Virus record (IMG/VR): IMGVR_UViG_3300025732_000019
Strand: one strand, 5' to 3'
Length of the DNA: 64,000 nucleotides
DNA from: a virus
Position numbers and translations under genes: made by a program. Below are positions 2,401 to 53,266 of the stretch, piece by piece. The notes below the pieces were generated by a model. The model was given only the letters and a program-made list of their open reading frames with translations. It had not been told where the DNA came from and did no database searches. Within the stretch, counting starts at the first letter, position 1. Each line of letters opens with the position of its first letter.

Positions 2401-3177
2401 CTACTCAGCCAGCACTTCTTTCGGTCGATACCAGCGATATCGCTTCTCTTGCCATGCTTTCAATGCCACTCGAAACCGACTCACGGGAATCGCGACAATC
2501 GTACTTTCGCCAATCGACCCCACCAGAAATCCAATAATCGTACGCTGCGTCTGAGAGACTAACGCACTGCCGGAGGAACCGCCATTGACACCCGCTTGCT
2601 GCAAGACGAGAGAGTGCTGCCAGTTGATGTCATTCTGCTTGACAGGGCGATCCAGATCCAGACTGGTAACGCTGCCAGAGAAGACTTGTTTGCCAAGACC
2701 GAGCGGTGACGCAATATTCCAATACAATGCAGGGATCACTTCATGCTGCTCATCGCCGAGTGGAATGACAGGCCAGTGTTTGGTCGTCTCCACCTCAAAC
2801 ACGGCGAAGTCTTCGCCACGCGACTGGTATCCGATGAACACCGGTTCCGCAGGCCAAAACGTTTTCTCAGCATGTTCGTCGAACGTGATGAAGAACGGCG
2901 TTTCCGCAGACGCACTTAATTCTTTGTCACGATTGTCGGAGCCGATGCAGTGCGCGGCCGTGACGAATCGATACCCCGTCTTGATGCGCTCGTATGCGGT
3001 CGCCGTACACGCCATGCGCATGCTCCCGGATTGATCCTGGCTATAGAGCAAGCCCACCGCATTCTGAATTGTCGTAATGAACTCGGTATCTGACTGTCGT
3101 GATTGTGCACGACCACTCTGAGTACTCAGGAGCATCACGATCACGGCACATATCGACCATACGCGAAGATGAGACAT
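2401..3177 (-). CDS. secreted trypsin-like (S1) serine protease
   Basis: signal peptide, TAAHC, DFAV, GGSSGS catalytic motifs; AGGAG RBS before ATG 3177. Confidence 0.88.
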   Translation of the reverse strand: MSHLRVWSICAVIVMLLSTQSGRAQSRQSDTEFITTIQNAVGLLYSQDQSGSMRMACTATAYERIKTGYRFVTAAHCIGSDNRDKELSASAETPFFITFDEHAEKTFWPAEPVFIGYQSRGEDFAVFEVETTKHWPVIPLGDEQHEVIPALYWNIASPLGLGKQVFSGSVTSLDLDRPVKQNDINWQHSLVLQQAGVNGGSSGSALVSQTQRTIIGFLVGSIGESTIVAIPVSRFRVALKAWQEKRYRWYRPKEVLAE

Positions 3178-3231
3178 GAGAATTTCTCCTTGAGCATATT
3201 TAGCAGAAACGCGGTTCTCACCGCATGAATT

Positions 3232-3416
3232 CCTATAACGTGTTGATATGACAGATGTTACGGGTAGTCTATACATATTTTGCATCAATCCATCCGGGTC
3301 GATACAATAAATATATCATCACGGGTGCTCGTAAGTCGTAGAATCTACACCACTTATACGTCATCATTCGTCTGCCCGGAGTTGACATCTTCATACACAG
3401 TCACTATAATACACGC
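3232..3416 (+). promoter_or_regulatory. paired-palindrome promoter cassette A
   Basis: degenerate 27-bp palindromes at 3235 and 3331, ATACATATTTTGCAT box, TTGACA 3382, TATAAT 3405. Confidence 0.7.
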
Positions 3417-3530
3417 ATGCTTAATCATCAGTTTTCATTGACGGTATGGGATATTGTCGTACTGTTCATCGATGCGACATTCTTTGCTCTTGGGATTGGG
3501 TTTTACCTGCTACATATGGGAGTCATCTAA
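3417..3530 (+). CDS. 37-aa membrane peptide, leaderless (not in ORF track)
   Basis: ATG 6 nt after TATAAT; MLNHQFSLTVWDIVVLFIDATFFALGIGFYLLHMGVI. Confidence 0.6.
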   Translation: MLNHQFSLTVWDIVVLFIDATFFALGIGFYLLHMGVI

Positions 3531-3532
3531 TC

Positions 3533-3739
3533 ATGCATCGTCTCCGTCGCGTCTCGTCGCGATCATCAGTGCCTTCGTTTCAGTTGTTTCGTGTCGTCGA
3601 GCGGCATCCCGTCACGGGAGAGTTTGTCGTGAGTGCCTCTCTGACGCTGCGAGATGCGGAAGCGTTAGCGGATCGGTGTCTCGCGAGTCGGCCGCCGCAG
3701 TCGCGTGTACTGTATGCGGTTGAACCGATGGGTCGCTAA
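3533..3739 (+). CDS. hypothetical protein
   Basis: tightly packed ORF in early operon. Confidence 0.55.
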   Translation: MHRLRRVSSRSSVPSFQLFRVVERHPVTGEFVVSASLTLRDAEALADRCLASRPPQSRVLYAVEPMGR

Positions 3740-3750
3740 CGGAATCGCGC

Positions 3751-3978
3751 ATGTCCGCCACAGGTTCATTACTCAGTCTCAGTGAAGAGGAACTACTCTT
3801 ATTGCATGAGTTATTGACGTTTGTGATTACGCATTACGAAGGCACCGATGCTATGACGGATGACGCGCTCGATGCGTTTATGAGATTGCAACAGAAGATC
3901 AACTTTCTGTTGGAAGTGACAGCGTTTCAGCGCGCCGTGACGCTACCCCATAGTAACACGTCATCACAAGTACATTAG
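3751..3978 (+). CDS. hypothetical protein
   Basis: ORF packing; LSLSEEELLLLHEL resembles the N-terminus of 8898..9107. Confidence 0.65.
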   Translation: MSATGSLLSLSEEELLLLHELLTFVITHYEGTDAMTDDALDAFMRLQQKINFLLEVTAFQRAVTLPHSNTSSQVH

Positions 3979-3998
3979 TGAGGAGAAAAGAGATAAAG

Positions 3999-4280
3999 AT
4001 GATTCGAATGTATCAGCATATTGTGTGTGCGGATGGTGCCTCGGTGAGCATTCAGGCGGGTCGGCATATGTACTGCACTCCGCGTGATGACCGTGGCCCC
4101 TACACGCACATCGAAGCAGGGTTTCCCTCGGTGGAACCGCCCGCGTCGTGGCGCGAGTATGCGGAAGAACTCGACGCACTGACCGAGACAGTCTACGGCT
4201 ACATGCCGTTCGACTGCGTGGATGAGTTCATCAACATCCACGGTGGCATGGTGAGCGGGGAACTGCCGCAGAGAGCATAA
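3999..4280 (+). CDS. conserved phage hypothetical protein
   Basis: CADG..SIQA...YCTPR...PY..E.GFPS motif; GAGGAG RBS. Confidence 0.8.
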   Translation: MIRMYQHIVCADGASVSIQAGRHMYCTPRDDRGPYTHIEAGFPSVEPPASWREYAEELDALTETVYGYMPFDCVDEFINIHGGMVSGELPQRA

Positions 4281-4295
4281 GGAGAGGGTGAGAGT

Positions 4296-4787
4296 ATGTT
4301 TATCACACATCGCAACGGGTCGGTCATTACTGACCAGTATGCATCGGTCGCTGACGCGGTTCATGCCGGCGTGGATCTGTCGTATGCGAATCTGACGGGT
4401 GCGAATCTGACGGGTGCGGATCTGACGGGTGCGAATCTGTCGTATGCGAATCTGTCGGATGCGAATCTGACGGGTGCGAATCTGACGGGTGCGGATCTGA
4501 CGGGTGCGAATCTGTCGTATGCGAATCTGACGGGTGCGAATCTGTCGTATGCGAATCTGACGGGTGCGAATCTGACGGGTGCGGATCTGACGGGTGCGGA
4601 TCTGTCGTATGCGAATCTGTTGGGTGCGAATCTGTGGGGTGCGAATCTGGCGTCAGCACATCTGTATCGTGCGGTTCTGACGGATGCGGTTCTGACCCGT
4701 GCGAATCTGGCAGGTGCGAATCTGTTGGGTGCGACTCTGACGGGTGCGTGGACGTTTCTCGGTAATCAACTCGTGTCGTTGGCATAG
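4296..4787 (+). CDS. pentapeptide repeat protein 1
   Basis: A(N/D)Lxx repeats encoded by 15-bp tandem DNA units; AGGAG RBS. Confidence 0.95.
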   Translation: MFITHRNGSVITDQYASVADAVHAGVDLSYANLTGANLTGADLTGANLSYANLSDANLTGANLTGADLTGANLSYANLTGANLSYANLTGANLTGADLTGADLSYANLLGANLWGANLASAHLYRAVLTDAVLTRANLAGANLLGATLTGAWTFLGNQLVSLA

Positions 4788-4805
4788 AGGAGAGAGAGAG
4801 AACCC

Positions 4806-5309
4806 ATGACCATTTATCATAAGAACGGTACGGTAATTACGGATCAGTATGACAGCATCGGAGCAGCCGTCAAGGCGGGAGCGGATCTGGCAGGTGCGAC
4901 TCTGGCAGGTGCGACTCTGGCAGGTGCGGATCTGACGGCCGCGAATCTGACGAATGCGGATCTGCGGAGTGCGAATCTGCTGGGCGCGAATCTGACGAAT
5001 GCGGATCTGCTGGGCGCGAATCTGACGAATGCGAATCTGCGGGGCGCGAATCTGACGAATGCGGATCTGTGGGGTGCGGATCTGCGGAGTGCGGATCTGA
5101 CGAATGCGGATCTGTGGGGTGCGGATCTGCGGAGTGCGAATCTGCTGGGCGCGAATCTGACGAATGCGGATCTGCTGGGCGCGAATCTGACGAATGCGAA
5201 TCTGCGGGGCGCGAATCTGACGAAGGTGAATCTGTGGGGTGCGAATCTGACGAAGGTGAATCTGACGGGTGCGATCATCTGTCTGGGCAACCGCCAGGTG
5301 ACGCTGTAA
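4806..5309 (+). CDS. pentapeptide repeat protein 2 (tandem paralog)
   Basis: same repeats; shared caps HxNGxVITDQY and LGNxxVxL. Confidence 0.95.
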   Translation: MTIYHKNGTVITDQYDSIGAAVKAGADLAGATLAGATLAGADLTAANLTNADLRSANLLGANLTNADLLGANLTNANLRGANLTNADLWGADLRSADLTNADLWGADLRSANLLGANLTNADLLGANLTNANLRGANLTKVNLWGANLTKVNLTGAIICLGNRQVTL

Positions 5310-5325
5310 AAGAAGAAGAGAGAAT

Positions 5326-5589
5326 ATGATCATCACTCGCTGCTCGAACTGCGACCGCGTATTGACGACGGCACACGGGGTGCGTCTGGAAAGTGCCAAC
5401 TTCTCGTCTGCACTTCCCACGCGACCTGCGACGACGACCATCACGTATGCGTGGTGTGATGGCTGTCTTGTCGATGCGTCTGGGCAAGATCGGGAGAGTT
5501 ATACCGATACACAAGATCGCGCCAACTATCATGAAGAACAGGACACCGAACACATCGATGACGATCACACCTGCACAGATATTCGATGA
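5326..5589 (+). CDS. small Cys-containing hypothetical protein
   Basis: CSNC...WCDGC, acidic tail. Confidence 0.55.
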   Translation: MIITRCSNCDRVLTTAHGVRLESANFSSALPTRPATTTITYAWCDGCLVDASGQDRESYTDTQDRANYHEEQDTEHIDDDHTCTDIR

Positions 5590-5965
5590 GGCCTGTGGCG
5601 ATTACCTGCGCTTTCTTGAACGGGATTATCATATTGTTCAGGATTTTCAGAATATCCCTCGCGCCCATCGGCACTGTGTGTTCGTGCTGCGTCATGGTAC
5701 GTTGTTGCACTATGTGCTGCGCGTGATGCGGCACAGCGACGACGCATATACGCGCTCGGTGCATTCCTGTCTGGTGCGCCACGATCATCCACGCATGCGG
5801 TTGCGGGCGGGAGATCTCTTACGCTATGCGGGTGTGCGCACACTGCGGACGTCTGCGGTGTATGGCAACATCTTTCAGTCGGACAGCTATCTCCGGTATG
5901 CACGATGGCATGATGACGTGTCACTGACGACACCGGTGCCGAACTCGATCTCGGAGACGTGGTAA
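5558..5965 (+). CDS. hypothetical protein, divergent paralog of 7889..8233
   Basis: SVHSCLV...HP.....GDLL.......YGNIF aligns with SCHAFVV..HP....GDLLKPA...RGNVL; start uncertain. Confidence 0.7.
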   Translation: MTITPAQIFDEACGDYLRFLERDYHIVQDFQNIPRAHRHCVFVLRHGTLLHYVLRVMRHSDDAYTRSVHSCLVRHDHPRMRLRAGDLLRYAGVRTLRTSAVYGNIFQSDSYLRYARWHDDVSLTTPVPNSISETW

Positions 5966-5966
5966 C

Positions 5967-6452
5967 ATGTCATCAACCTTGACACCGCTCTTCAGTAAAG
6001 CCAGTGATCTGTGGGGCACCCCCGCAGCCGTCTTTCAGCATTATCATACGCGCTATGGGTTCACCATCGACGCGGCCGCGAATGCACAGATGACGCTGCT
6101 GCCGCGCTGGTGGGGGCCTGACTCGCGGTTGAGTACAGACGCGTTAGCCGTCTCATGGGCGGGAGAAACGTGTTGGTTGAACCCGCCGTATTCTCGCGTC
6201 AAAGACTTCACGCGCAAAGCGCGCCTCGAACAACTCGAACAGCGCGTCACCACGGTGATGCTGATTCCAAGTCGTACGGATACCGCGTATTGGCATGACT
6301 ACATTTGGAATACCGCCGCGCACACCTGGCAGCATGGCATACAGGGGCAGTTCCTCCGTGGACGATTGAAGTTTCGTGATGCGCGAGGAACATCCATGAA
6401 CCCGGCACCCTTTCCCAGTGTGGTGATCGTGTTTGACGGAGCGACCGTCTAA
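5967..6452 (+). CDS. phage N6-adenine DNA methyltransferase (T1/lambdoid Dam family)
   Basis: WxTP..F, IDAAA, WLNPPYS, LIPSRTDT, RGRLKF, APFPS motifs. Confidence 0.92.
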   Translation: MSSTLTPLFSKASDLWGTPAAVFQHYHTRYGFTIDAAANAQMTLLPRWWGPDSRLSTDALAVSWAGETCWLNPPYSRVKDFTRKARLEQLEQRVTTVMLIPSRTDTAYWHDYIWNTAAHTWQHGIQGQFLRGRLKFRDARGTSMNPAPFPSVVIVFDGATV

Positions 6453-7042
6453 TGCCCTCACGCACCATTACGTCAGCACATATTCGTCAGTATGCCACGT
6501 CAGAGGACAGAGTGGATCATTATGATGATGCGATCGAACTGCGCCGATTCGTGTCTCTTCTGCATGCACACGTCTTTCCGAATCCGCAGCAGCGCGAGAT
6601 CCGCATCAAACCGTATGGAAAGACCGGCGTCGATATCGGCGTCTTCGACCCCCGCTCCCGTGCGCTGGTCTGTGCGTTTGACGTCGAACGCTGTATGATA
6701 TGGCAAGCGGATTGGCCCGCGCATTGGCGGTGTCTCAGTTTTCTCGCACGAAAAGAGAAGTACTTGCGGTTTCCGCAGTTTGGCATGGTCTGGTTCAATC
6801 GCTCGGTCACGACGTGCGCCGTCGCATGGAAAGAGGATCTGGTGTCCGCGCCTCTCGTCACGCGTCGATTCTCCCGTCGTACCTACACCGATCAGGTGCG
6901 AGAACTTCCATGTGCGGCCGGGACCTTGATCGGGCAGACGTTTGGTGTGCGTGAAACAGCACTGTTTACCAACCGTCGGACGTTCGATTTCACACAATCC
7001 GACGCACGACCCGCTCGGGAACAGATGCCCGTAACTCGTTGA
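6452..7042 (+). CDS. hypothetical protein, possible PD-(D/E)xK nuclease
   Basis: TAATG-coupled to the MTase; GVDIG...FDVER motif. Confidence 0.5.
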   Translation: MPSRTITSAHIRQYATSEDRVDHYDDAIELRRFVSLLHAHVFPNPQQREIRIKPYGKTGVDIGVFDPRSRALVCAFDVERCMIWQADWPAHWRCLSFLARKEKYLRFPQFGMVWFNRSVTTCAVAWKEDLVSAPLVTRRFSRRTYTDQVRELPCAAGTLIGQTFGVRETALFTNRRTFDFTQSDARPAREQMPVTR

Positions 7043-7202
7043 CAATCAAGCACATACGGGAATCGCATGCATGCAGCGCATCCTGCGGCAGACATTCATA
7101 CAATCTTTGCATCCCAAACCCTCCTGTAACCCCTTGATAATCAAGCACTTACACGCATCCTCGATTTGACACTGCTGGCAGAATCTCCTATACTGTATGC
7201 AG
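7028..7202 (+). promoter_or_regulatory. paired-palindrome promoter cassette B
   Basis: palindromes at 7031 and 7126, CATACAATCTTTGCAT box, TTGACA 7166, TATACT 7189. Confidence 0.85.
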
Positions 7203-7391
7203 ATGATGACTCGTAAACATTTTGTGCTGATTGCACACCTCTTCAAATCCACGAAGCCTGACGCGTCGAACACTGTCGCTATGCGGCAGTGGGAATCCAC
7301 CGTCATGCAGTTCGCGCATGCGGGTGTCACGATGAATCCGCGTTTCAATGCCACTCGGTTTCTCAAGGCGTGTGATCTGTGGCTGCGCTAA
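7203..7391 (+). CDS. small phage protein (MTRKHF...NPRFN..RFLKAC family)
   Basis: recognisable small phage family; starts directly after the promoter. Confidence 0.75.
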   Translation: MMTRKHFVLIAHLFKSTKPDASNTVAMRQWESTVMQFAHAGVTMNPRFNATRFLKACDLWLR

Positions 7392-7393
7392 AC

Positions 7394-7636
7394 ATGCAGA
7401 CGGAAACCGTGAGCGCATTTCTTGCCCGTGGTGGGCGCATCGTGCGGTGTGCGCCGTCGAAGCGCCCCGCGTATCGACCGACAAAGCTGCTCAACATGAA
7501 GCGCGGTCATAACCTGACCGGTCGCATCGTGCGCGTCGCGAATGCGCTGCCACCCTCGGATGGCCCTCGCGTGTCGTCACTGGAGCGATTGTCACAGTAT
7601 CAGTGCAAGTACCGCCACTTACAGCGGATGCAGTAG
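7394..7636 (+). CDS. small basic phage protein
   Basis: ETV.AFLARGG.I..C motif. Confidence 0.7.
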   Translation: MQTETVSAFLARGGRIVRCAPSKRPAYRPTKLLNMKRGHNLTGRIVRVANALPPSDGPRVSSLERLSQYQCKYRHLQRMQ

Positions 7637-7650
7637 AGGAGCAGAGAAAG

Positions 7651-7920
7651 ATGTATCGTTCAAACGTAGAGTGGTGGTGGAGTTGTGAAGCGGTGGCCGT
7701 CGGTGTCAATAAGCACGGGATTGCACAGGATATCGACGTCGCGACCCGAGAACCGGGACGCAAGAACATCGCCCGGCGCAGACTGCGCATGTATTTGGAT
7801 GACGCCGCGCGGGCCACATGCGCGGAGCATGGATTGACGTTTGTGGGGTATCGTGAGGAGCCGAGTTATGACGGTGAGGGGATGGAATATGACGAATATT
7901 ATGACGAATATGACATTTGA
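7651..7920 (+). CDS. hypothetical protein
   Basis: GAGGAG RBS, acidic tail. Confidence 0.65.
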   Translation: MYRSNVEWWWSCEAVAVGVNKHGIAQDIDVATREPGRKNIARRRLRMYLDDAARATCAEHGLTFVGYREEPSYDGEGMEYDEYYDEYDI

Positions 7921-8233
7921 ACTCAAAACGGCGATTGATCAGTACCTCGCCGCGTGTGAAGCGGATTACACGCGCATGTCGTATGCTTCCATGCGGCAGA
8001 TTCGGTTTATACTCGATCCCGGTCGGAAGTTCATCCGCATCTGGCGCCAGTTCGATGGCGAGTCGAGTCGGTCGTGCCATGCGTTTGTGGTGCTCACGCA
8101 TCCAAAGTTTCGCACTGGTGACTTGCTGAAGCCCGCGACGTGGAAAGCGCCCGCAATGAACGCGGCGCGTGGGAATGTGCTGGAACCGTCGTCGTATCGT
8201 GCGCAGTGGACGGGCCCCGAGTATTTGCGCTAA
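7889..8233 (+). CDS. conserved T4-like phage early protein
   Basis: GRKFIRI...GDLLKPATWKAPA.NAARGNV...WTGP.YL family motif. Confidence 0.8.
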   Translation: MTNIMTNMTFELKTAIDQYLAACEADYTRMSYASMRQIRFILDPGRKFIRIWRQFDGESSRSCHAFVVLTHPKFRTGDLLKPATWKAPAMNAARGNVLEPSSYRAQWTGPEYLR

Positions 8234-8258
8234 GAGAACCATAGAGGAGTCGAGAGAG

Positions 8259-8708
8259 ATGATTACCACAGCGTTTGCGTTTGCAGGTCGTGCGTCGTAC
8301 GTGATCGAGAACCCGAAAGGGGAATCCGTCACTGTCAAGTTGAGTCGGTCGAAGGCGGGGAACGTGAATCCCTACACCGGCCAGCCGTACGCGGAAACGT
8401 TCTTTGTCTCGCTGCGACACAATAACGCGCCGTGGATGTTTGTCGGAAAACTCGATGCGCAGCGGCGCAAGATTCTCGCGACGTCAAAGGTGGAAGCCTA
8501 CTGCGACCTGGTGGAAGCCTACTGGCAGTCGCCGGCGGGTGCGCGAGCGATTGCCATCGCGCAGTGGTCGCTGGATCTCATCCATGCACGGGCGACGGTG
8601 CCTGCGGGCTATCGTCTCGCGCATACCGGTCGCTGCGGAAAGTGCGGGAAGTTGCTCCGGGATGCGGAAAGCATTGCGCTCGGATTAGGGCCGGTGTGCC
8701 GCGGGTGA
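8259..8708 (+). CDS. DUF6011-like Zn-finger protein
   Basis: C-terminal GRCGKCGKLL...ESI..GLGPVC. Confidence 0.8.
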   Translation: MITTAFAFAGRASYVIENPKGESVTVKLSRSKAGNVNPYTGQPYAETFFVSLRHNNAPWMFVGKLDAQRRKILATSKVEAYCDLVEAYWQSPAGARAIAIAQWSLDLIHARATVPAGYRLAHTGRCGKCGKLLRDAESIALGLGPVCRG

Positions 8709-8724
8709 TTCCCCGTCGCACAGA

Positions 8725-8897
8725 CCCGTAACGCGTTGCACATCACGCACATACGGGAATCGTATGCATGGTGCGCATGGTGCTCGACGATGGCATACAA
8801 TCTTTGCATGTCAAAACTTCCTGTAACTCCTTGAAAATCAAGCACTTACAGATACCCCTGATTTGACAGGTTCGCGGGTTTCGCATACACTATACCT
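8725..8897 (+). promoter_or_regulatory. paired-palindrome promoter cassette C
   Basis: palindromes at 8728 and 8823, box 8794-8809, TTGACA 8863, TACACT 8886, leaderless ATG 8898. Confidence 0.85.
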
Positions 8898-9107
8898 ATG
8901 AGTAACGACATGACTGGCACGTTGCATCTCACGGAAGACGAACTGACGTTCCTGCTGGAACTAGTGCACAACGAGATGTACACTGCGAATACGAACATCG
9001 TGCTTGCGGAGAATCTCGCGGCTCGGCTGTCTCGCGATCTGCACCATGTGCGGATGGAGAACGAAGACGCAGAGGCCGTCGCTGCATGGGATGCGGTGTC
9101 GTGGTAA
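8898..9107 (+). CDS. small acidic hypothetical protein, leaderless
   Basis: ATG 6 nt after the -10 box. Confidence 0.7.
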   Translation: MSNDMTGTLHLTEDELTFLLELVHNEMYTANTNIVLAENLAARLSRDLHHVRMENEDAEAVAAWDAVSW

Positions 9108-9250
9108 CGCGCATCGATGCCATGTGCGCATGGTTCGGATGCGAGCCATAGAATGTTCGCATCCCAAACTCGTCTGTAAGTCGTTGATAATCAAGCACTT
9201 ACAGACACCCAACATTTGACAGATTGTTTGAAAGGGAGTACACTTTAGGT
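9104..9250 (+). promoter_or_regulatory. promoter cassette D (first palindrome deleted)
   Basis: box 9147-9162, palindrome at 9176, TTGACA 9216, TACACT 9239, ATG 9251. Confidence 0.85.
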
Positions 9251-10582
9251 ATGAAAAATGCTCGGTATGCAGTGATTCTTGAGATTGCGCGTCAAAACAA
9301 CGGTATGGTGCGGTGTGACGATCCCGCGTTGATTGCGGGTTTGGGTGATACCGCGTATCGGTTGCCGACCTATATCGGCGACATTCGTCGCAAAGAGGGA
9401 TTGACAGTCGAACCCCTCAAGTCAGGTCGTACCGTCGTCGCGTACACCTTCCCGGCGTTTGCAGACGGCTCCGCGCCGGTTTCCGCACCTGTCGTCGCAG
9501 TCAAGACGGCAAAGCCCGCAAAAGGGCCGAAAGCCGCTCCTGTGGTGGTTCCTGCGGTCGATGTGGAATCGCTGGTCGCGAGTACTGACAACGCGTCAAG
9601 TCTGTCACTGACGGCGAGTGCCGCGAGTTCGAAGTCGGAGATTACCGCATTACTGCGAGAACTCGCGACGGGTGACAGTGCACTGGTGAAGGTGCCTGCC
9701 AAGCTGCGCGAGTTTGTGCCCTTCGGTCAGTATGACGTCGTGCATCGGATTGTCTCGTCTCGCGTCTTCTGCCCGATCTTCATCACCGGACATTCCGGAA
9801 ACGGCAAGACGCTGCAAGTCGAACAGGCGTGCGCGGCGGCGAACCGCGAGTTTTTGCGCGTGAACGTGACGGCTGAGACGGATGAGGATGCGCTGATCGG
9901 TGGATTCCGTCTCAAGAACGGCAATACCGTGTTTGAGTTTGGCCCTGTCGTACAGGGTATGATTCGCGGTGCGGTGCTCCTGCTCGACGAAATCGATCTT
10001 GCGGGGCCGAAGATTCTCTGCTTGCAGTCGCTGATGGAAGGCAAGCCGATGGTGATCAAGCCGCTCGGCATCACGATTGCGCCTGCGCCGGGGTTCACCG
10101 TCGTCGCGACCGCCAACACGAAGGGTCGCGGGTCTGACGATGGCAAGTATATCGGGACCGGCCCGCTCAATGAAGCGTTTCTCGAACGGTTTCCGATGAC
10201 AATCGAGCAGGAATATCCGGGCGCCGCTGTGGAGAAGAAGATTCTCACGAAGACGTACGAGTCGTATGGCGGTGTCGTAACGGATGGTGTCCTGACGTTT
10301 GCGGATACGCTCACGAAGTGGGCAGACGCGATTCGTGCGACGTTCAACGAAGGGGGTATCGAGGATGTCATCTCGACGCGCCGTCTGTGCCACATCATGC
10401 GCACGTATCAGATTTTCGGTGATGAATCGAAGGTGCTGGCGCTCTGCTTGAACCGCTTCGACAAGTCGGTGCAAGCGAAGTTCTTGGATCTGTATGCCAA
10501 GTTGTCGCCGAGCGCAGCGGGTGCGGCGGCCACGTCCGTCAGTGACGATCCTCGCGTCATTGCTGCCCCGGTGAACTTCTAA
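9251..10582 (+). CDS. MoxR/CbbQ/CobS-like AAA+ ATPase with N-terminal wHTH-like domain
   Basis: Walker A GHSGNGKT, Walker B LLLDEID, ATANTKG, NEAFLERF, ISTRRL. Confidence 0.92.
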   Translation: MKNARYAVILEIARQNNGMVRCDDPALIAGLGDTAYRLPTYIGDIRRKEGLTVEPLKSGRTVVAYTFPAFADGSAPVSAPVVAVKTAKPAKGPKAAPVVVPAVDVESLVASTDNASSLSLTASAASSKSEITALLRELATGDSALVKVPAKLREFVPFGQYDVVHRIVSSRVFCPIFITGHSGNGKTLQVEQACAAANREFLRVNVTAETDEDALIGGFRLKNGNTVFEFGPVVQGMIRGAVLLLDEIDLAGPKILCLQSLMEGKPMVIKPLGITIAPAPGFTVVATANTKGRGSDDGKYIGTGPLNEAFLERFPMTIEQEYPGAAVEKKILTKTYESYGGVVTDGVLTFADTLTKWADAIRATFNEGGIEDVISTRRLCHIMRTYQIFGDESKVLALCLNRFDKSVQAKFLDLYAKLSPSAAGAAATSVSDDPRVIAAPVNF

Positions 10583-10599
10583 TCGAAAGGGATCCCCAC

Positions 10600-10878
10600 A
10601 TGCATCTGACACCAGAAACACTGAAACTCTACGATCTCGTGGCCTCGCAGATCAATACGCTCGCGTGGACATGCTTGCTGGCGTATGTCGCACGGCTCAC
10701 GCAGCAGTACCTGATGCACCGTTTGACGGTGCTGCAGCATGGGATTCTCGAAGCGGTGAGTGATTGCGGGTGTGCGCCGCACACGGATACCGATGCGACA
10801 GCGCCCGGGTCGTCCACCGGGACGAATGCGATTGGATTCCACCATGCGGTCGAGGAACCCGATGAGGATGACGACTAA
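10600..10878 (+). CDS. hypothetical protein
   Basis: ORF following the AAA gene with AAGGGA RBS. Confidence 0.55.
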   Translation: MHLTPETLKLYDLVASQINTLAWTCLLAYVARLTQQYLMHRLTVLQHGILEAVSDCGCAPHTDTDATAPGSSTGTNAIGFHHAVEEPDEDDD

Positions 10879-10885
10879 CCGCTCT

Positions 10886-11061
10886 CCCGTAAGTGCTTGA
10901 AATACAAGCATTTACGGGGATGTATGCGTCACACGCATACTGGTCGGGAGAGTATAGAAAGTTTGCATACTAAAATACCCCGTAAGTCGTTGAAAATGCA
11001 GGGGTTACGGATATCCCCGGTTTGACAGGGATGCCGGTTTCGGAATATACTATACGTATCA
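10886..11061 (+). promoter_or_regulatory. paired-palindrome promoter cassette E
   Basis: palindromes at 10889 and 10982, TATAGAAAGTTTGCAT box, TTGACA 11022, TATACT 11046. Confidence 0.85.
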
Positions 11062-13359
11062 ATGATGATGAATCACTCCTCCTCTCCCACGAACTGGTCA
11101 AAACATGTGCAGTTGGATGATCAGAAGCGTGGCCTTGCGCGTCTCATGGCGCGTGAGAATATCACCGTCGAACATGGTGCATACGAGACAGCTTCCTTTG
11201 ACGTCGAGACTCGCGTGTTACGGCTCCCGCTGTGGGACAATGTGACGCTCGATCAGTATGACCTCCTGATTGGTCATGAAGTCGGTCACGCGTTGTATAG
11301 CGACGATTTGTCGTTTATTGACGATTGCAAAGCCGCTCCCGGTTTGCATACCTTCATTAACGTGCTTGAGGATGTGCGCATTGAGCGCCGCATCAAGGAT
11401 GCGTTTCCTGGCATGCAGGGTGCGTTTCAGCGCGGCTACCGTGACTTCTTCGAACACGGCCCGCTGTTTCAGTTGACGAAGCCGGTTGCGGAATACAGCT
11501 TCATTGACCGCATTAACATCCATTACAAGATTGGTGCGCACGTGACGGTACCGTTCACGGATGATGAACGTGCGATTCTCGCGAAGGTCGACGCCACGCG
11601 TACGATGGGTGACGTCATTGCGCTGGCCAAGGAACTGTACGGCGCTGCCAAGTCTGAACAGAAGAAGCAGAATCCTGAGTCGGGATCGCAGTCGTCGAAG
11701 CCGTCTTCTGACGAAACGACTGGCCAGTCGCCGACGGCGAAGTCGTCGGATTCAGAGTCTAATTCAGAGTCGGACTCAGAGTCTAATTCAGAGTCGGATT
11801 CAGAGTCGGACTCAGAGTCTAATTCAAAGTCGGATTCAGAGTCTAATTCAGAGTCGGATTCAGAGTCGGATTCAGAGTCGGATTCAGAGTCGGAATCGAG
11901 TTCGGATTCAGAGTCGGATTCAGAGTCGGAATCGAGTTCGGATGCGACGTCAGAATCGGATGTGACGTCGGATGCGCCGCATGCGGAAACGGATATGGCG
12001 AACGCCGCTGCCATGAAGACGATGCAGTCTGCGACGTCTGACGTGCGCACCGTGACGCATGTGCCGCTGACGAAGAGTGAAGCGGATGCCTACACCGTGA
12101 GTGTCGCGGACGTCGTGCGCGAAGCGGTGCGGATCGAAACGCAGTATGCCACGCGTGCGACGAGCATCACGGCATCGCTGGAAACGCTGACGCGTCAGTA
12201 TGCACCGACTGCCGCGCACATGGCGCGAGAGTTCGAACGTCGCAAGAGCGCCAAGCAGTTGGAACGTGCGCGAGTCGCGACGACGGGTCGTCTGAACCTG
12301 AAGAAGTTGCCGTTCTATCAGTTCCGTGAAGATTTGTTCCAGCAAGTGACGATTCTTCCGAACGGCCAGTCACACGGTTTGATGCTCCTGATCGACGGTT
12401 CCGGCAGTATGTCGGGTGTGTTTCCGGATGTCATCGAGCAGGTGTTTCTCTTCGGATTGTTCGCCAAGCAGGTGCGCATTCCGGTGCAAGCGTTTGTCTT
12501 TCAGACGTCGTATCACAGTCCGTTGATGCCGAACGCGCAGCGATTGATGCCGCGTGCGGTGCAGTTGGTGACAGTCTTGGATACGACGTCGAAGGTGCCG
12601 ATCGCTGCGCAGTTGCGCAGTCTTGCGCAGTTGCATTGCGCGTTCTCGGGATTCGACGCGCATCTCGCGCCGTATGTGCGTCTCGCGGCCACGCCGCTCT
12701 ACGGTGGCATGCTCGTCATGGAAACGCATGTCCTGCGCATGCGCGAGTCGCTGGGCTTGCAAAAGATGACAGTCATGGTGCTGACGGATGGTGAAGACTC
12801 CGACGGTCTGTATGCGGGTGAGCAGCGCATCTCGTCGTCTCCGGGGGCGGCTCGCGTGATCGTGCGCGACACGCTGACGCATCGCACGTTTGTGGGGTTC
12901 ACAGACGCGCCGGATACGTATTGGGGATACACGACGGATCGACACCTGCTGAACCGTCTGATGCATCATGTTTATACGGTGGGCCTCGGTGTCTCCCTGA
13001 TTCGCTTGTATATCGGTCGCGACTCGGATTGCCGTAGTCATCGTGCCGTCGGGACGATGGCGAGCGCGTTGGGCTCGTTGACGGATGCCAAGGATGTGTA
13101 CCAAGTCGCCGCGCCGTACGGTGCGCGTCTCGCGGATGACAAGATTGCTGCGGTGACACGGAAGGATCTGCCGAGCCTGTTTGCGGATACCGCGATTATC
13201 GTGTCGAACCGCAAGCTGGATATGCAGGATGACACGTTTGAAGATCTCGATACTTCGACGATGACGAATCGCCGAATCATGAGTGCCTTTACGAAGAGTA
13301 ACGTAGCGGCCGCTCAAAATCGCGTCTTAATCAATGCGGTGATGCCGTTCATTGCGTAA
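11062..13359 (+). CDS. CobT-like VWA protein with N-terminal HExxH domain and Ser/Asp/Glu linker
   Basis: HEVGH and NVLEDVRIE; MIDAS DGSGS...TP...LTDGE; partner of the AAA ATPase. Confidence 0.9.
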   Translation: MMMNHSSSPTNWSKHVQLDDQKRGLARLMARENITVEHGAYETASFDVETRVLRLPLWDNVTLDQYDLLIGHEVGHALYSDDLSFIDDCKAAPGLHTFINVLEDVRIERRIKDAFPGMQGAFQRGYRDFFEHGPLFQLTKPVAEYSFIDRINIHYKIGAHVTVPFTDDERAILAKVDATRTMGDVIALAKELYGAAKSEQKKQNPESGSQSSKPSSDETTGQSPTAKSSDSESNSESDSESNSESDSESDSESNSKSDSESNSESDSESDSESDSESESSSDSESDSESESSSDATSESDVTSDAPHAETDMANAAAMKTMQSATSDVRTVTHVPLTKSEADAYTVSVADVVREAVRIETQYATRATSITASLETLTRQYAPTAAHMAREFERRKSAKQLERARVATTGRLNLKKLPFYQFREDLFQQVTILPNGQSHGLMLLIDGSGSMSGVFPDVIEQVFLFGLFAKQVRIPVQAFVFQTSYHSPLMPNAQRLMPRAVQLVTVLDTTSKVPIAAQLRSLAQLHCAFSGFDAHLAPYVRLAATPLYGGMLVMETHVLRMRESLGLQKMTVMVLTDGEDSDGLYAGEQRISSSPGAARVIVRDTLTHRTFVGFTDAPDTYWGYTTDRHLLNRLMHHVYTVGLGVSLIRLYIGRDSDCRSHRAVGTMASALGSLTDAKDVYQVAAPYGARLADDKIAAVTRKDLPSLFADTAIIVSNRKLDMQDDTFEDLDTSTMTNRRIMSAFTKSNVAAAQNRVLINAVMPFIA
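11746..11972 (+). repeat. 12-bp tandem repeats (TCGGATTCAGAG / TCTAATTCAGAG) encoding SDSE/SNSE linker
   Basis: direct reading. Confidence 0.9.
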
Positions 13360-13398
13360 GACGCGTGCATTACTCACAACACACACAAGGAACAGACA

Positions 13399-13683
13399 AT
13401 GCAGAAGATGTTTGAAAAAGTCGCGGATGTGATCAAGTCGAAGCAGGGCATGATCGCGGTCAATGATCCGGATCTCGATGCGGTGCTGATGGTGAATGGA
13501 AAGTCTACGAAGTATCGCTTGGCCACCTATATGTGGGAGATTCGCACGAAGATGAATCTTGCGGTGGTGCCGGTGCGCACCGGTCGCACCGTGACGAGCT
13601 ATGAGGTGCCGGCATTCAAGGTGGTCGCAGATGCGACAGTGCCAGCGAGTGTCGCGGAGTCTGCCGTCGCTGCGAGTCTCTGA
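13399..13683 (+). CDS. stand-alone wHTH-like protein homologous to the AAA N-terminus
   Basis: GM...NDP.L...YRLATY..EIR.K..L.V.P...GRTV..Y..PAF shared with the 9251 protein. Confidence 0.85.
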   Translation: MQKMFEKVADVIKSKQGMIAVNDPDLDAVLMVNGKSTKYRLATYMWEIRTKMNLAVVPVRTGRTVTSYEVPAFKVVADATVPASVAESAVAASL

Positions 13684-13706
13684 GACGTCTCTGAGAGGCT
13701 GCGGGT

Positions 13707-13732
13707 GTGGGGGAGTCTTCGGATTCTCCCAC
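13707..13732 (+). terminator. C(UUCG)G hairpin after the operon
   Basis: GTGGGGGAGTC-TTCG-GATTCTCCCAC. Confidence 0.7.
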
Positions 13733-13750
13733 GCGTTAAACCAACCCAAC

Positions 13751-13800
13751 CTCCACCAGTCTCCACCAATCTCCACAGGCCTCCAATCATCTCCACCATT
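13751..13800 (+). repeat. five 10-bp-period CTCCA repeats
   Basis: CTCCACCAGT CTCCACCAAT CTCCACAGGC CTCCAATCAT CTCCACCATT. Confidence 0.85.
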
Positions 13801-14047
13801 ACGATTCCACAAACACGGGGAATATGCATCACATCGCATGCGTCATCGATCACACGGATCCGTCAAATGCCAGAAATCTCGAACATTTTTCTGTCAATTC
13901 TGCCTGTCATCGTATCTGTTCCATGAGATAATGGTTTCGTTCGCATGAGTGCGAACAACGAACAGTGAACACCCATGGCACTGCGGTGCCTTTTTGACTG
14001 ATCTGTTCGATGTACACCAAACACCCGAAAGAAAAAAGCACCGTATC

Positions 14048-52711: not shown

Positions 52712-53266
52712 ATGACTGTTGGAATTGATTATAGTATGCAGGCACCTGCGGCGTGTGTCTTCTCGGAGACGCCGCAATTCTGGTGCGCGAGTCAACGCTC
52801 GTTTCCAACCTTGCCATCCCTCACCACGACAACGATTTCTGTTACCGAAGTCGTTCCACGTGCGGAACAGATGGCACAAGCGTTGATTCAATGGTTACAG
52901 CATTATCCAGATGTTCGTACCGTGTATATTGAAGACTATGCCTACAATGCAACTGGGCGCGTCTTTCATATCGGTGAACATGCAGGCATCCTCAAATATC
53001 TTTTGTGGTTGTCTCGCTACGATATCGTCGCGGTTCCGCCTACCGTCATTAAGAAGTTTGCGACCGGTAAGGGGAATGCCGATAAGAATCGTATGACGAG
53101 TGCATTCATGAAAGAATACCCCGAGGCGCATCGCTGGCAAGCCACATTCTTCCCTCGCACGGCTGCCACTGCGTCTGTTGCCAAATCCCCTCTTTCTGAT
53201 TTGGCGGATGCTTACTGGATTGCCAAGTATGCGAAAGCATACATTGACAAGACAACAGTAAAATAG
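52712..53266 (+). CDS. RuvC-like resolvase/endonuclease
   Basis: GIDYS, IEDYA, KKFATGKGNA.K, D.AD. Confidence 0.88.
   Translation: MTVGIDYSMQAPAACVFSETPQFWCASQRSFPTLPSLTTTTISVTEVVPRAEQMAQALIQWLQHYPDVRTVYIEDYAYNATGRVFHIGEHAGILKYLLWLSRYDIVAVPPTVIKKFATGKGNADKNRMTSAFMKEYPEAHRWQATFFPRTAATASVAKSPLSDLADAYWIAKYAKAYIDKTTVK

Follow-up and report, generated by a model that had tools for sequence, protein, structure and literature searches.

The DNA considered here is a 64-kb window (64,000 nucleotides of the IMG/VR virus record IMGVR_UViG_3300025732_000019), and our subject is a repeated palindrome that precedes five early promoters in it, each forming part of what we call a cassette (A to E). The base composition of the window is 49-57% GC, nearly all of its genes are on the plus strand, and 13 tRNA genes are present. 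Because its DNA polymerase shares 43% identity with those of T4-like cyanophages, and a megablast search of 50,697 GenBank phage records gave no close match to the window, the DNA belongs to a new, uncultured T4-like myovirus. The five cassettes lie within 8 kb at the onset of the plus-strand early genes and adjoin a divergent trypsin-like gene on the minus strand (2401-3177). Behind cassette A are genes for two pentapeptide-repeat proteins and a Dam methylase, functions typical of early host takeover or anti-restriction.

When the window was scanned with the pattern GTAA-N4-TTG-N5-CAA-N4-TTAC, allowing up to three mismatches, 10 matches were found against 1.9 expected, and none of 100 shuffles reached 10. 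Eight of the matches start at 3235, 7031, 7126, 8728, 8823, 9176, 10889 and 10982. A ninth palindrome, at 3331, is degenerate yet alignable, and the nine copies listed in a preliminary description of this DNA are therefore real, eight by pattern and one by alignment. The spacings given there for the pairs within cassettes, 96, 95, 95 and 93 bp, were also reproduced. Alignment of the five regions gave a single module of about 170 bp, which consists, in order, of a distal palindrome with CCC/GGG flanks, a dyad ATGC-N7-GCAT, a box ATAC/ATAG-N7-GCAT, a proximal palindrome, a promoter and an ATG. The box, whose presence between the palindromes had been reported before, starts at 7098, 8795, 9148 and 10954 and is always 28 bp ahead of the proximal palindrome. 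The dyad, which had escaped the preliminary description, is found at 7067, 8764, 9117 and 10924, 30-31 bp upstream of the box. Both of these 15-bp inner dyads stand at rigid distances between the palindromes and are lineage-specific; relatives have in their place small hairpins flanked by TATGC, or phased A-tracts. The features of the five cassettes are as follows, where an IHF core is a match to the consensus of the host protein IHF described below.

3235-3530, plus strand: cassette A, atypical, in the divergent gap beside the trypsin-like gene (from pattern scan, alignment and promoter scoring).
3235-3261: distal palindrome of A, with a perfect bottom-strand IHF core at 3236-3248.
3271-3285 and 3302-3316: dyads of A, followed by its degenerate proximal palindrome at 3331-3357.
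3382-3387 and 3405-3410: -35 and -10 boxes of A, followed by a predicted leaderless open reading frame (ORF) for a hydrophobic peptide of 37 amino acids at 3417-3530.
7031-7057: distal palindrome of B, with CCC...GGG flanks and one mismatch to the pattern; WATCAA is perfect on the top strand and has one mismatch on the bottom strand.
7067-7112: inner dyads of B, ATGC-N7-GCAT at 7067-7081 and ATAC-N7-GCAT at 7098-7112.
7126-7152: proximal palindrome of B, centred at -62, with two perfect inverted IHF cores.
7166-7391, plus strand: promoter of B, TTGACA-17-TATACT (7166-7194), and first ORF 7203-7391 (62 amino acids, predicted leader of about 2 nucleotides).
8728-8754: distal palindrome of C, degenerate in its inner part.
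8764-8809: inner dyads of C (8764-8778 and 8795-8809).
8823-8849: proximal palindrome of C, centred at -62, with a perfect top-strand IHF core.
8863-9107, plus strand: promoter of C, TTGACA-17-TACACT (8863-8891), and a predicted leaderless ORF of 69 amino acids (8898-9107).
9117-9162: inner dyads of D (9117-9131 and 9148-9162), without a distal palindrome; the upstream ORF ends at 9107.
9176-9202: palindrome of D, centred at -62, with two perfect inverted IHF cores.
9216-10582, plus strand: promoter of D, TTGACA-17-TACACT (9216-9244), and predicted leaderless ORF 9251-10582 for an AAA_5 (MoxR-like) ATPase of 443 amino acids.
10889-10915: distal palindrome of E, the sole copy forming a near-perfect hairpin.
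10924-10968: inner dyads of E (10924-10938 and 10954-10968).
10982-11008: proximal palindrome of E, centred at -63, with a degenerate right half.
11022-13359, plus strand: promoter of E, TTGACA-18-TATACT (11022-11051), and ORF 11062-13359 (765 amino acids, vWA-like protein, partner of the ATPase, predicted leader of about 4 nucleotides).

In cassettes B to E, the proximal palindrome ends exactly 13 bp before TTGACA, as had been stated. The 17-bp promoter spacer claimed for the same four cassettes holds for B, C and D, and is found in A as well, but E has 18 bp. In consensus, the module ends with TTGACA, a spacer of 17-18 bp, TAtACT, about 6 nucleotides and the ATG. In 2800-14000, the five top-ranking sigma-70 matches are the promoters of the cassettes, with scores of 12/12, 11/12, 11/12, 10/12 and 10/12. 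With +1 taken as 7 nucleotides downstream of the -10 box, the first ATG of A, C and D begins at the predicted +1, that of B at +3 and that of E at +5. This agrees with the little or no leader described earlier, and the first genes are therefore predicted to be leaderless. The proximal palindromes of B, C and D have their centre at -62 and that of E at -63. This is the class I activator position that had been pointed out (dimer sites centred near -61.5, on the face of the polymerase), a role in activation being putative. Cassette A departs from this plan in that 24 bp separate its degenerate proximal site from the -35 box. Cassette D has no distal palindrome either in the window or in its close relative L113, which bears out the absence described earlier, there read as a possible recombination scar. 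The idea that the cassettes head small accessory genes applies only in part, since D and E head the 443-residue ATPase and the 765-residue vWA-like protein.

Some further starts and leaders were noted. The 37-codon ORF at 3417-3530 encodes a strongly hydrophobic peptide and lies at the start site of the best promoter of the region (12/12). ORFs at 7203, 11062 and 21178 likewise start within 4 nucleotides of the predicted transcription start of strong sigma-70 promoters; in contrast, the promoter at 53244 is followed by a normal leader with AGGAGG.

The nature of the palindrome is best seen from its half-site. Column counts over 147 distinct palindrome sites gave C-G-T-A-A-(G/C)-N3-T-T-G-A-W-W-W-T-C-A-A-N3-(C/G)-T-T-A-C-G, in which each half reads WATCAA, four variable bases and TTA, which is the IHF core consensus WATCAANNNNTTR. 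IHF sites contain WATCAA near the centre and TTR 4 bp further 3′; two AA steps 9 bp apart are the points of proline intercalation, and the other half of some sites holds an A-tract (PMC1874591). Because the two cores share the centre of the palindrome, TTG-N5-CAA sets the TT and AA steps (T9T10 and A18A19) exactly 9 bp apart, as at the IHF kinks. The lambda H' site, printed as AAA-AGCA-TTG-CTTAT-CAA-TTTG-TTG (PMC1807965), fits the palindrome skeleton AA-N4-TTG-N5-CAA-N4-TT. Nine perfect WATCAANNNNTTR cores are present on the two strands of the window against 2.1 expected, and six of the nine are inside cassette palindromes. When 31 sites of the lineage were chosen solely by the outer GTAA-N19-TTAC, 12 had a perfect in-register WATCAA in at least one half (0.03 expected), and 19 had one with at most one mismatch (0.5 expected). 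Symmetric conservation reaches about 33 bp, the size of the IHF footprint. An A-tract was not found in the non-consensus half, which holds a second inverted core, and a tract of A3-A8 lies just outside the proximal site. The motifs of FNR, CRP, CIRCE, LexA, dif, parS and attC gave no fit to the palindrome. On this basis we propose, with a probability of roughly 0.5, that the palindromes are IHF-type (DNABII) sites in immediate-early transcription modules and are bound by a host protein.

A palindrome may also act as a folded strand, and this was examined by covariation in the 147 sites, with shuffled right halves as control. The variable positions 5-8 and 20-23 were complementary no more often than in shuffled halves (z = 0.4, -2.4, -2.7 and 1.1). 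Because no excess of complementarity exists there, each half is taken from a permitted set without regard to the other, with, if anything, an avoidance of perfect symmetry. The predicted RNA hairpins of the window copies have energies from -5.6 to -23.4 kcal/mol, mostly with large internal loops (3x3 to 5x5). No cassette has an intrinsic terminator, no U-tract follows the palindromes, and an Rfam scan of 2500-12000 at E <= 1 found nothing. Since it is the sequence of each half that is conserved, a protein site on duplex DNA is indicated, and these results point to the palindromes being DNA sites for a protein and not hairpins. That they act instead as RNA or single-stranded DNA hairpins, serving as a terminator, 3′-end protector or processing site for read-through transcripts from upstream, we regard as very unlikely. 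This explanation draws on the distal copies, which have CCC...GGG extensions and of which that at 10889 folds at -23.4 kcal/mol (z = -7.6), on the lack of other terminators in the units, and on the definition of the promoter-early stem-loop (PeSL) of T4-type phages as a stem-loop plus an early promoter. Opposed to it are the absence of excess pairing, even a deficit, at the variable positions, the weak energies of most copies, and the conservation of sequence rather than pairing across unrelated phages; the fixed register of the proximal copy with the -35 box would also be needless for an RNA element.

The arrangement was compared in relatives of the window. A metagenome scan for the right arm followed by 12 nucleotides and TTTGACA gave 13 matches, one of which was a true relative (L084/L096), and two cassette-specific pattern scans of viral contigs found nothing. 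L084/L096 encodes proteins 36-52% identical to five window proteins and has three cassettes, in which the palindrome ends exactly 13 bp before TTGACA or TTGACT and the ATG is 6-11 nucleotides after the -10 box; its pairs are 74-77 bp apart, with extra sites 38-39 bp apart. Homologues of the vWA-like protein led to L113, which has 93-98% nucleotide identity to the window and the same five cassettes. In L114-L117 (43-44% identical), a cassette is kept ahead of the vWA-like gene with a 14-bp gap, and pairs are 86-97 bp apart. Further cassettes with 13-bp gaps are found in L114, and the DNA between its sites consists of phased A-tracts. Across relatives, pair spacing is about 74-96 bp (7.0-9.1 turns), with some sites at 38-39 bp, and the phasing of about 9 turns that had been described is a property of the window. 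The register to the -35 box (13-14 bp) is conserved among relatives, but the 9-turn pair spacing is not.

Two other observations were made in these relatives. Leaderless-looking first ORFs are found also in L096, L113, L114 and L116. In L114 (13540-13660) and L116 (8216-8340), a second IHF-like core, AATCAA-GGAG-TTA, overlaps the ribosome-binding site of a gene with a cREC_REC domain, and its variable bases are the Shine-Dalgarno GGAG.

Gene order differs at long range. The window has cassette D with the AAA ATPase gene followed by cassette E with the vWA-like gene, whereas L096 has a cassette with the vWA-like gene, a cassette with the AAA gene and then a homologue of the window gene at 3978; as read from gene order, apparent shuffling of units is seen once, in L096. 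Four larger indels separate L113 from the window; they concern the Dam gene, a stretch of 588 bp, two genes inserted right beside cassette C, and a GmrSD-like gene that is swapped. It could be supposed that the cassettes are site-specific recombination sites of Xer-, integron- or intasome-like type and move actively, with the palindromes or dyads as recombinase sites and IHF as an accessory factor. We consider this very improbable, even though small dyads with IHF sites on either side are reminiscent of lambda attP, the units of the AAA and vWA genes that are swapped in L096 each carry a cassette, and cassette D lacks one palindrome. No recombinase was seen among those products of the region that carry annotations, the scan having covered part of the ORFs, cassette E stays ahead of the vWA-like gene down to 43% identity, and the indels of L113 are mostly at ordinary gene junctions. 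Xer/dif core sites have two 11-bp arms around a centre of 6-8 bp, and the Xer-type 11-6-11 geometry invoked in the preliminary description does not match the conserved blocks, which are 12-3-12. Nor do we see in the palindrome a resemblance to the dif consensus.

Many uncultured phages unrelated to the window carry the palindrome too, at their arrays of early genes. An IMG/VR search with the palindrome core gave 51 contigs (loci), and in the 520 kb scanned there were 235 sites, compared with 2 for the reversed pattern; 23 of the 51 loci had at least two sites and 18 had at least five. Most sites come as pairs at a distance of 50 bp, and the commonest spacings between neighbours were 50, 49, 53, 58 and 42 bp. 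Contig G006, which is complete at 170 kb and has 35.5% GC, carries about 16 pairs in its first 16 kb and across its ends. Within a G006 pair, the starts of the two sites are separated by 50 bp, with a GC-rich 23-mer in between; a promoter-like TTGC..-16/17-TATTCT follows each pair at a distance of about 100 bp, with an ATG 6-7 nucleotides later. From this arrangement the early genes of G006 look leaderless too, although G006 has no regulator in common with the window. No counterpart to the palindrome or to cassette D was found in cultured phages and E. coli genomes.

Near the palindromes of L064 (497-1600), L013 (9280-9340), L011 and L019, a motif TGGCA(C/T)G-N4-(C/T)TGC resembling a sigma-54 -24/-12 promoter was noticed; in L064 it is about 40 nucleotides downstream of the IHF-like site, where IHF-assisted sigma-54 promoters would place it. 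A sigma-54 reading of GCGTGCCAA fits a -24/-12 promoter in these four loci and fails in G006, where the related motif has no -12 GC, and we give it as a side observation. Single chromosomal copies of the palindrome were found in Fibrobacter, Prevotellaceae and Polaromonas metagenome-assembled genomes (MAGs), after tRNA or large genes. In the MAG contigs L054, L059 and L060, near-identical copies come right after tRNA genes in Prevotellaceae and Polaromonas and are followed by a T-run. The neighbouring proteins of the chromosomal copies include no regulator. These copies mostly resemble ordinary hairpin terminators, and their likeness to the phage sites is probably due to chance or convergence.

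We then consider which protein binds. The HU/IHF family (PF00216) had no match in three palindrome-bearing phages that are 89-100% complete, compared with matches in 9 of 14 control genomes. A DNABII hidden Markov model built from Polaromonas, Pantoea and Daeguia genes found nothing at E <= 10 in the window, its relatives (L084/L096 and L113-L117) or contigs G001-G007. BLAST of all window ORFs against the 51 IMG/VR loci and seven whole or partial palindrome-bearing contigs returned an HNH endonuclease, ribonucleotide reductase, ThyX, a RecA-like protein and similar proteins, and no regulator-type protein common to the window and unrelated palindrome phages; likewise, no DNA-binding family emerged from clustering of ORFs among the IMG/VR loci. 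Immediate-early promoters fire before any phage protein is made and are served by host or injected proteins only. Because of this timing, and because neither a phage DNABII gene nor a common regulator was found, a host factor is the simplest binder, and a conserved host factor appears likeliest from these searches. A protein injected with the DNA, or a regulator whose gene lies beyond the 64 kb, is a less likely binder.

The latter case is part of a broader explanation, in which the palindromes are operators of a dedicated phage regulator, a dimer or tetramer made early or injected, that shuts off or boosts the early promoters and loops between the two sites. This is conceivable, though we find it doubtful. 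The motif is more specific than the IHF consensus (G1, G5 and the CC...GG flanks), its register with the -35 box is fixed, the pairs of sites suit cooperative binding, and the gene could lie outside the window because the analysis covered 64 kb, whereas the genome measures about 148 kb or more. On the other hand, the pair spacing over which a regulator would loop is not conserved, and at the time when immediate-early promoters fire nothing phage-made is there yet. L096 keeps the palindrome but not the N-terminal domain of the protein encoded at 9251, which had been proposed as the binder. The dedicated looping activator of the preliminary description is also hard to maintain because the half-site equals the consensus of a known host factor, and unrelated palindrome phages have no regulator-type protein in common with the window or, among the DNA examined, with each other.

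If host IHF is the binder, the cassettes may work as follows. Each cassette would be an immediate-early module, in which a near-consensus sigma-70 promoter starts the mRNA at the start codon or a few bases from it and is preceded by one or two mirror-symmetric IHF/DNABII-type sites of 27-33 bp. An IHF-like protein of the host, already there at DNA entry, would occupy the site at -62, whose register with the -35 box is fixed, and make a U-turn, which would return the DNA at about -90 to -130 to the polymerase; the returned DNA would be the two small dyads here and curved A-tract DNA in L114. In cassettes that have a distal site, at about -157, this site would contribute another bend and close off the unit. 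Such a fold might strengthen or shape early transcription and mark the boundary of the unit, the net effect being activation, insulation from read-through and supercoiling, or timing. The modules of about 170 bp are repeated in one orientation, and therefore ordinary homologous recombination could permute promoter-plus-gene units, as proposed for PeSLs. IHF binding, the direction of the effect on transcription, the leaderless starts and recombination at the cassettes are all points that we infer.

Several points weigh against the IHF proposal. The motif is tighter than the E. coli IHF consensus, with G1, G/C5 and the C...G flanks also conserved, and the binder might therefore be another protein or a form of IHF particular to the host. 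The inner WATCAA is poor in many left halves of the lineage (GTAAGTCCTG...). IHF sites in nature lack such symmetry, and we found none described that has it. An activator should hardly be necessary for promoters this near to consensus. The GC content of some palindrome-rich phages is 33-42%, and their hosts may lack the classical heterodimeric IHF. With regard to shuffling, only one of the four larger L113 indels touches a cassette (C).

A wider and, in our view, unlikely extension of the proposal is that the symmetrised IHF-type site is a portable standard part of early cassettes, which unrelated large phages came to share by exchange or by convergence. Paired U-turns would then allow leaderless immediate-early expression with host factors only, together with shufflable units, and lytic phages would have an integron-like economy of cassettes with neither a dedicated recombinase nor a phage regulator.

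If the IHF proposal holds for the immediate-early promoters of many large uncultured phages, early regions and the limits of units could be recognised in metagenomic phage genomes by one conserved word of 33 bp. The palindrome would also hint at host range, which would be limited to hosts with an IHF-type protein, and strong, structured early expression before any phage protein exists would be explained. The PeSL idea of shufflable promoter cassettes would be extended to a different kind of element, and the predicted leaderless early mRNAs would be a second unusual trait of these phages.

The genes of the region also show features of their own. The first early unit contains tandem paralogous genes for pentapeptide-repeat proteins of the DNA-mimic type (4296-4787 and 4806-5309); L113 has one copy at the same place and a third related copy elsewhere. 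The Dam-family methylase gene (5967-6452) is a clean presence/absence difference from L113, despite 93-98% identity, and in L113 an ORF of 161 amino acids is inserted right before cassette C. The AAA_5 ATPase (9251-10582) and the 765-residue vWA-like protein (11062-13359) form a conserved gene pair. Homologues of the latter are found in hundreds of T4-like cyanophage records, under annotations that vary between peptidase, midasin and RNA-binding protein. An HNH endonuclease gene (869-1420) lies inside the tRNA array, and its product is the only window protein with homologues in both G006 and G007, which are near-complete and palindrome-bearing.

Finally, the cassettes were compared with known systems; a literature search by sequence and topic found no paper describing the palindrome. 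PeSL cassettes are known in the T4-type phages RB49/phi1, T4/PST and KVP40/nt-1 (PMC2839356, PMC4122927). The comparison with PeSLs made earlier is apt, because cassette-plus-gene units are permuted in L096. In both systems, short composite elements recur in variable early regions of T4-like phage genomes, each with a dyad ahead of a near-consensus sigma-70 early promoter and with a single accessory gene or a few behind it, and units are reshuffled between relatives. PeSLs have a stem-loop or terminator directly upstream of the promoter, in the form of a short GC stem, whereas the dyad here behaves as a DNA site, long, conserved in sequence, IHF-like and without terminator features. It is also doubled and 13 bp from the -35 box, in a module of about 170 bp with two further dyads. 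In addition, the palindrome is common to unrelated phages, and evidence of cassette-mediated indels is weak at close range.

The second likeness is to IHF-assisted promoters, which include Mu Pe and P. putida Pu. There, too, an IHF site is upstream of the core promoter and bends A/T-rich or activator-bound DNA back to the polymerase. Lambda pL, with a distant UP element, is another such promoter (Giladi et al. 1998, PMID 9791187, cited in PMC1784095). Like Mu Pe, it is a phage early promoter served by a host factor. The sites of these promoters are single and asymmetric, consisting of one consensus half and an A-tract; by contrast, the candidate sites here are symmetrised and frequently come in pairs, recur at each early unit and are kept in different phage lineages. 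The crystallised IHF site H' of lambda attP has the same skeleton with WATCAA and TTR elements, but its consensus is on one side only and it serves recombination, not transcription. The closest arrangement among the palindrome phages compared is that of G006, where paired sites of the same palindrome consensus are placed before early promoters with leaderless-looking first genes, but the sites are 50 bp apart and about 100 bp from the promoter, while in the window they are 93-96 bp apart and the proximal site abuts the promoter. The cassettes are a new form that combines features of PeSL cassettes with those of IHF-assisted promoters.

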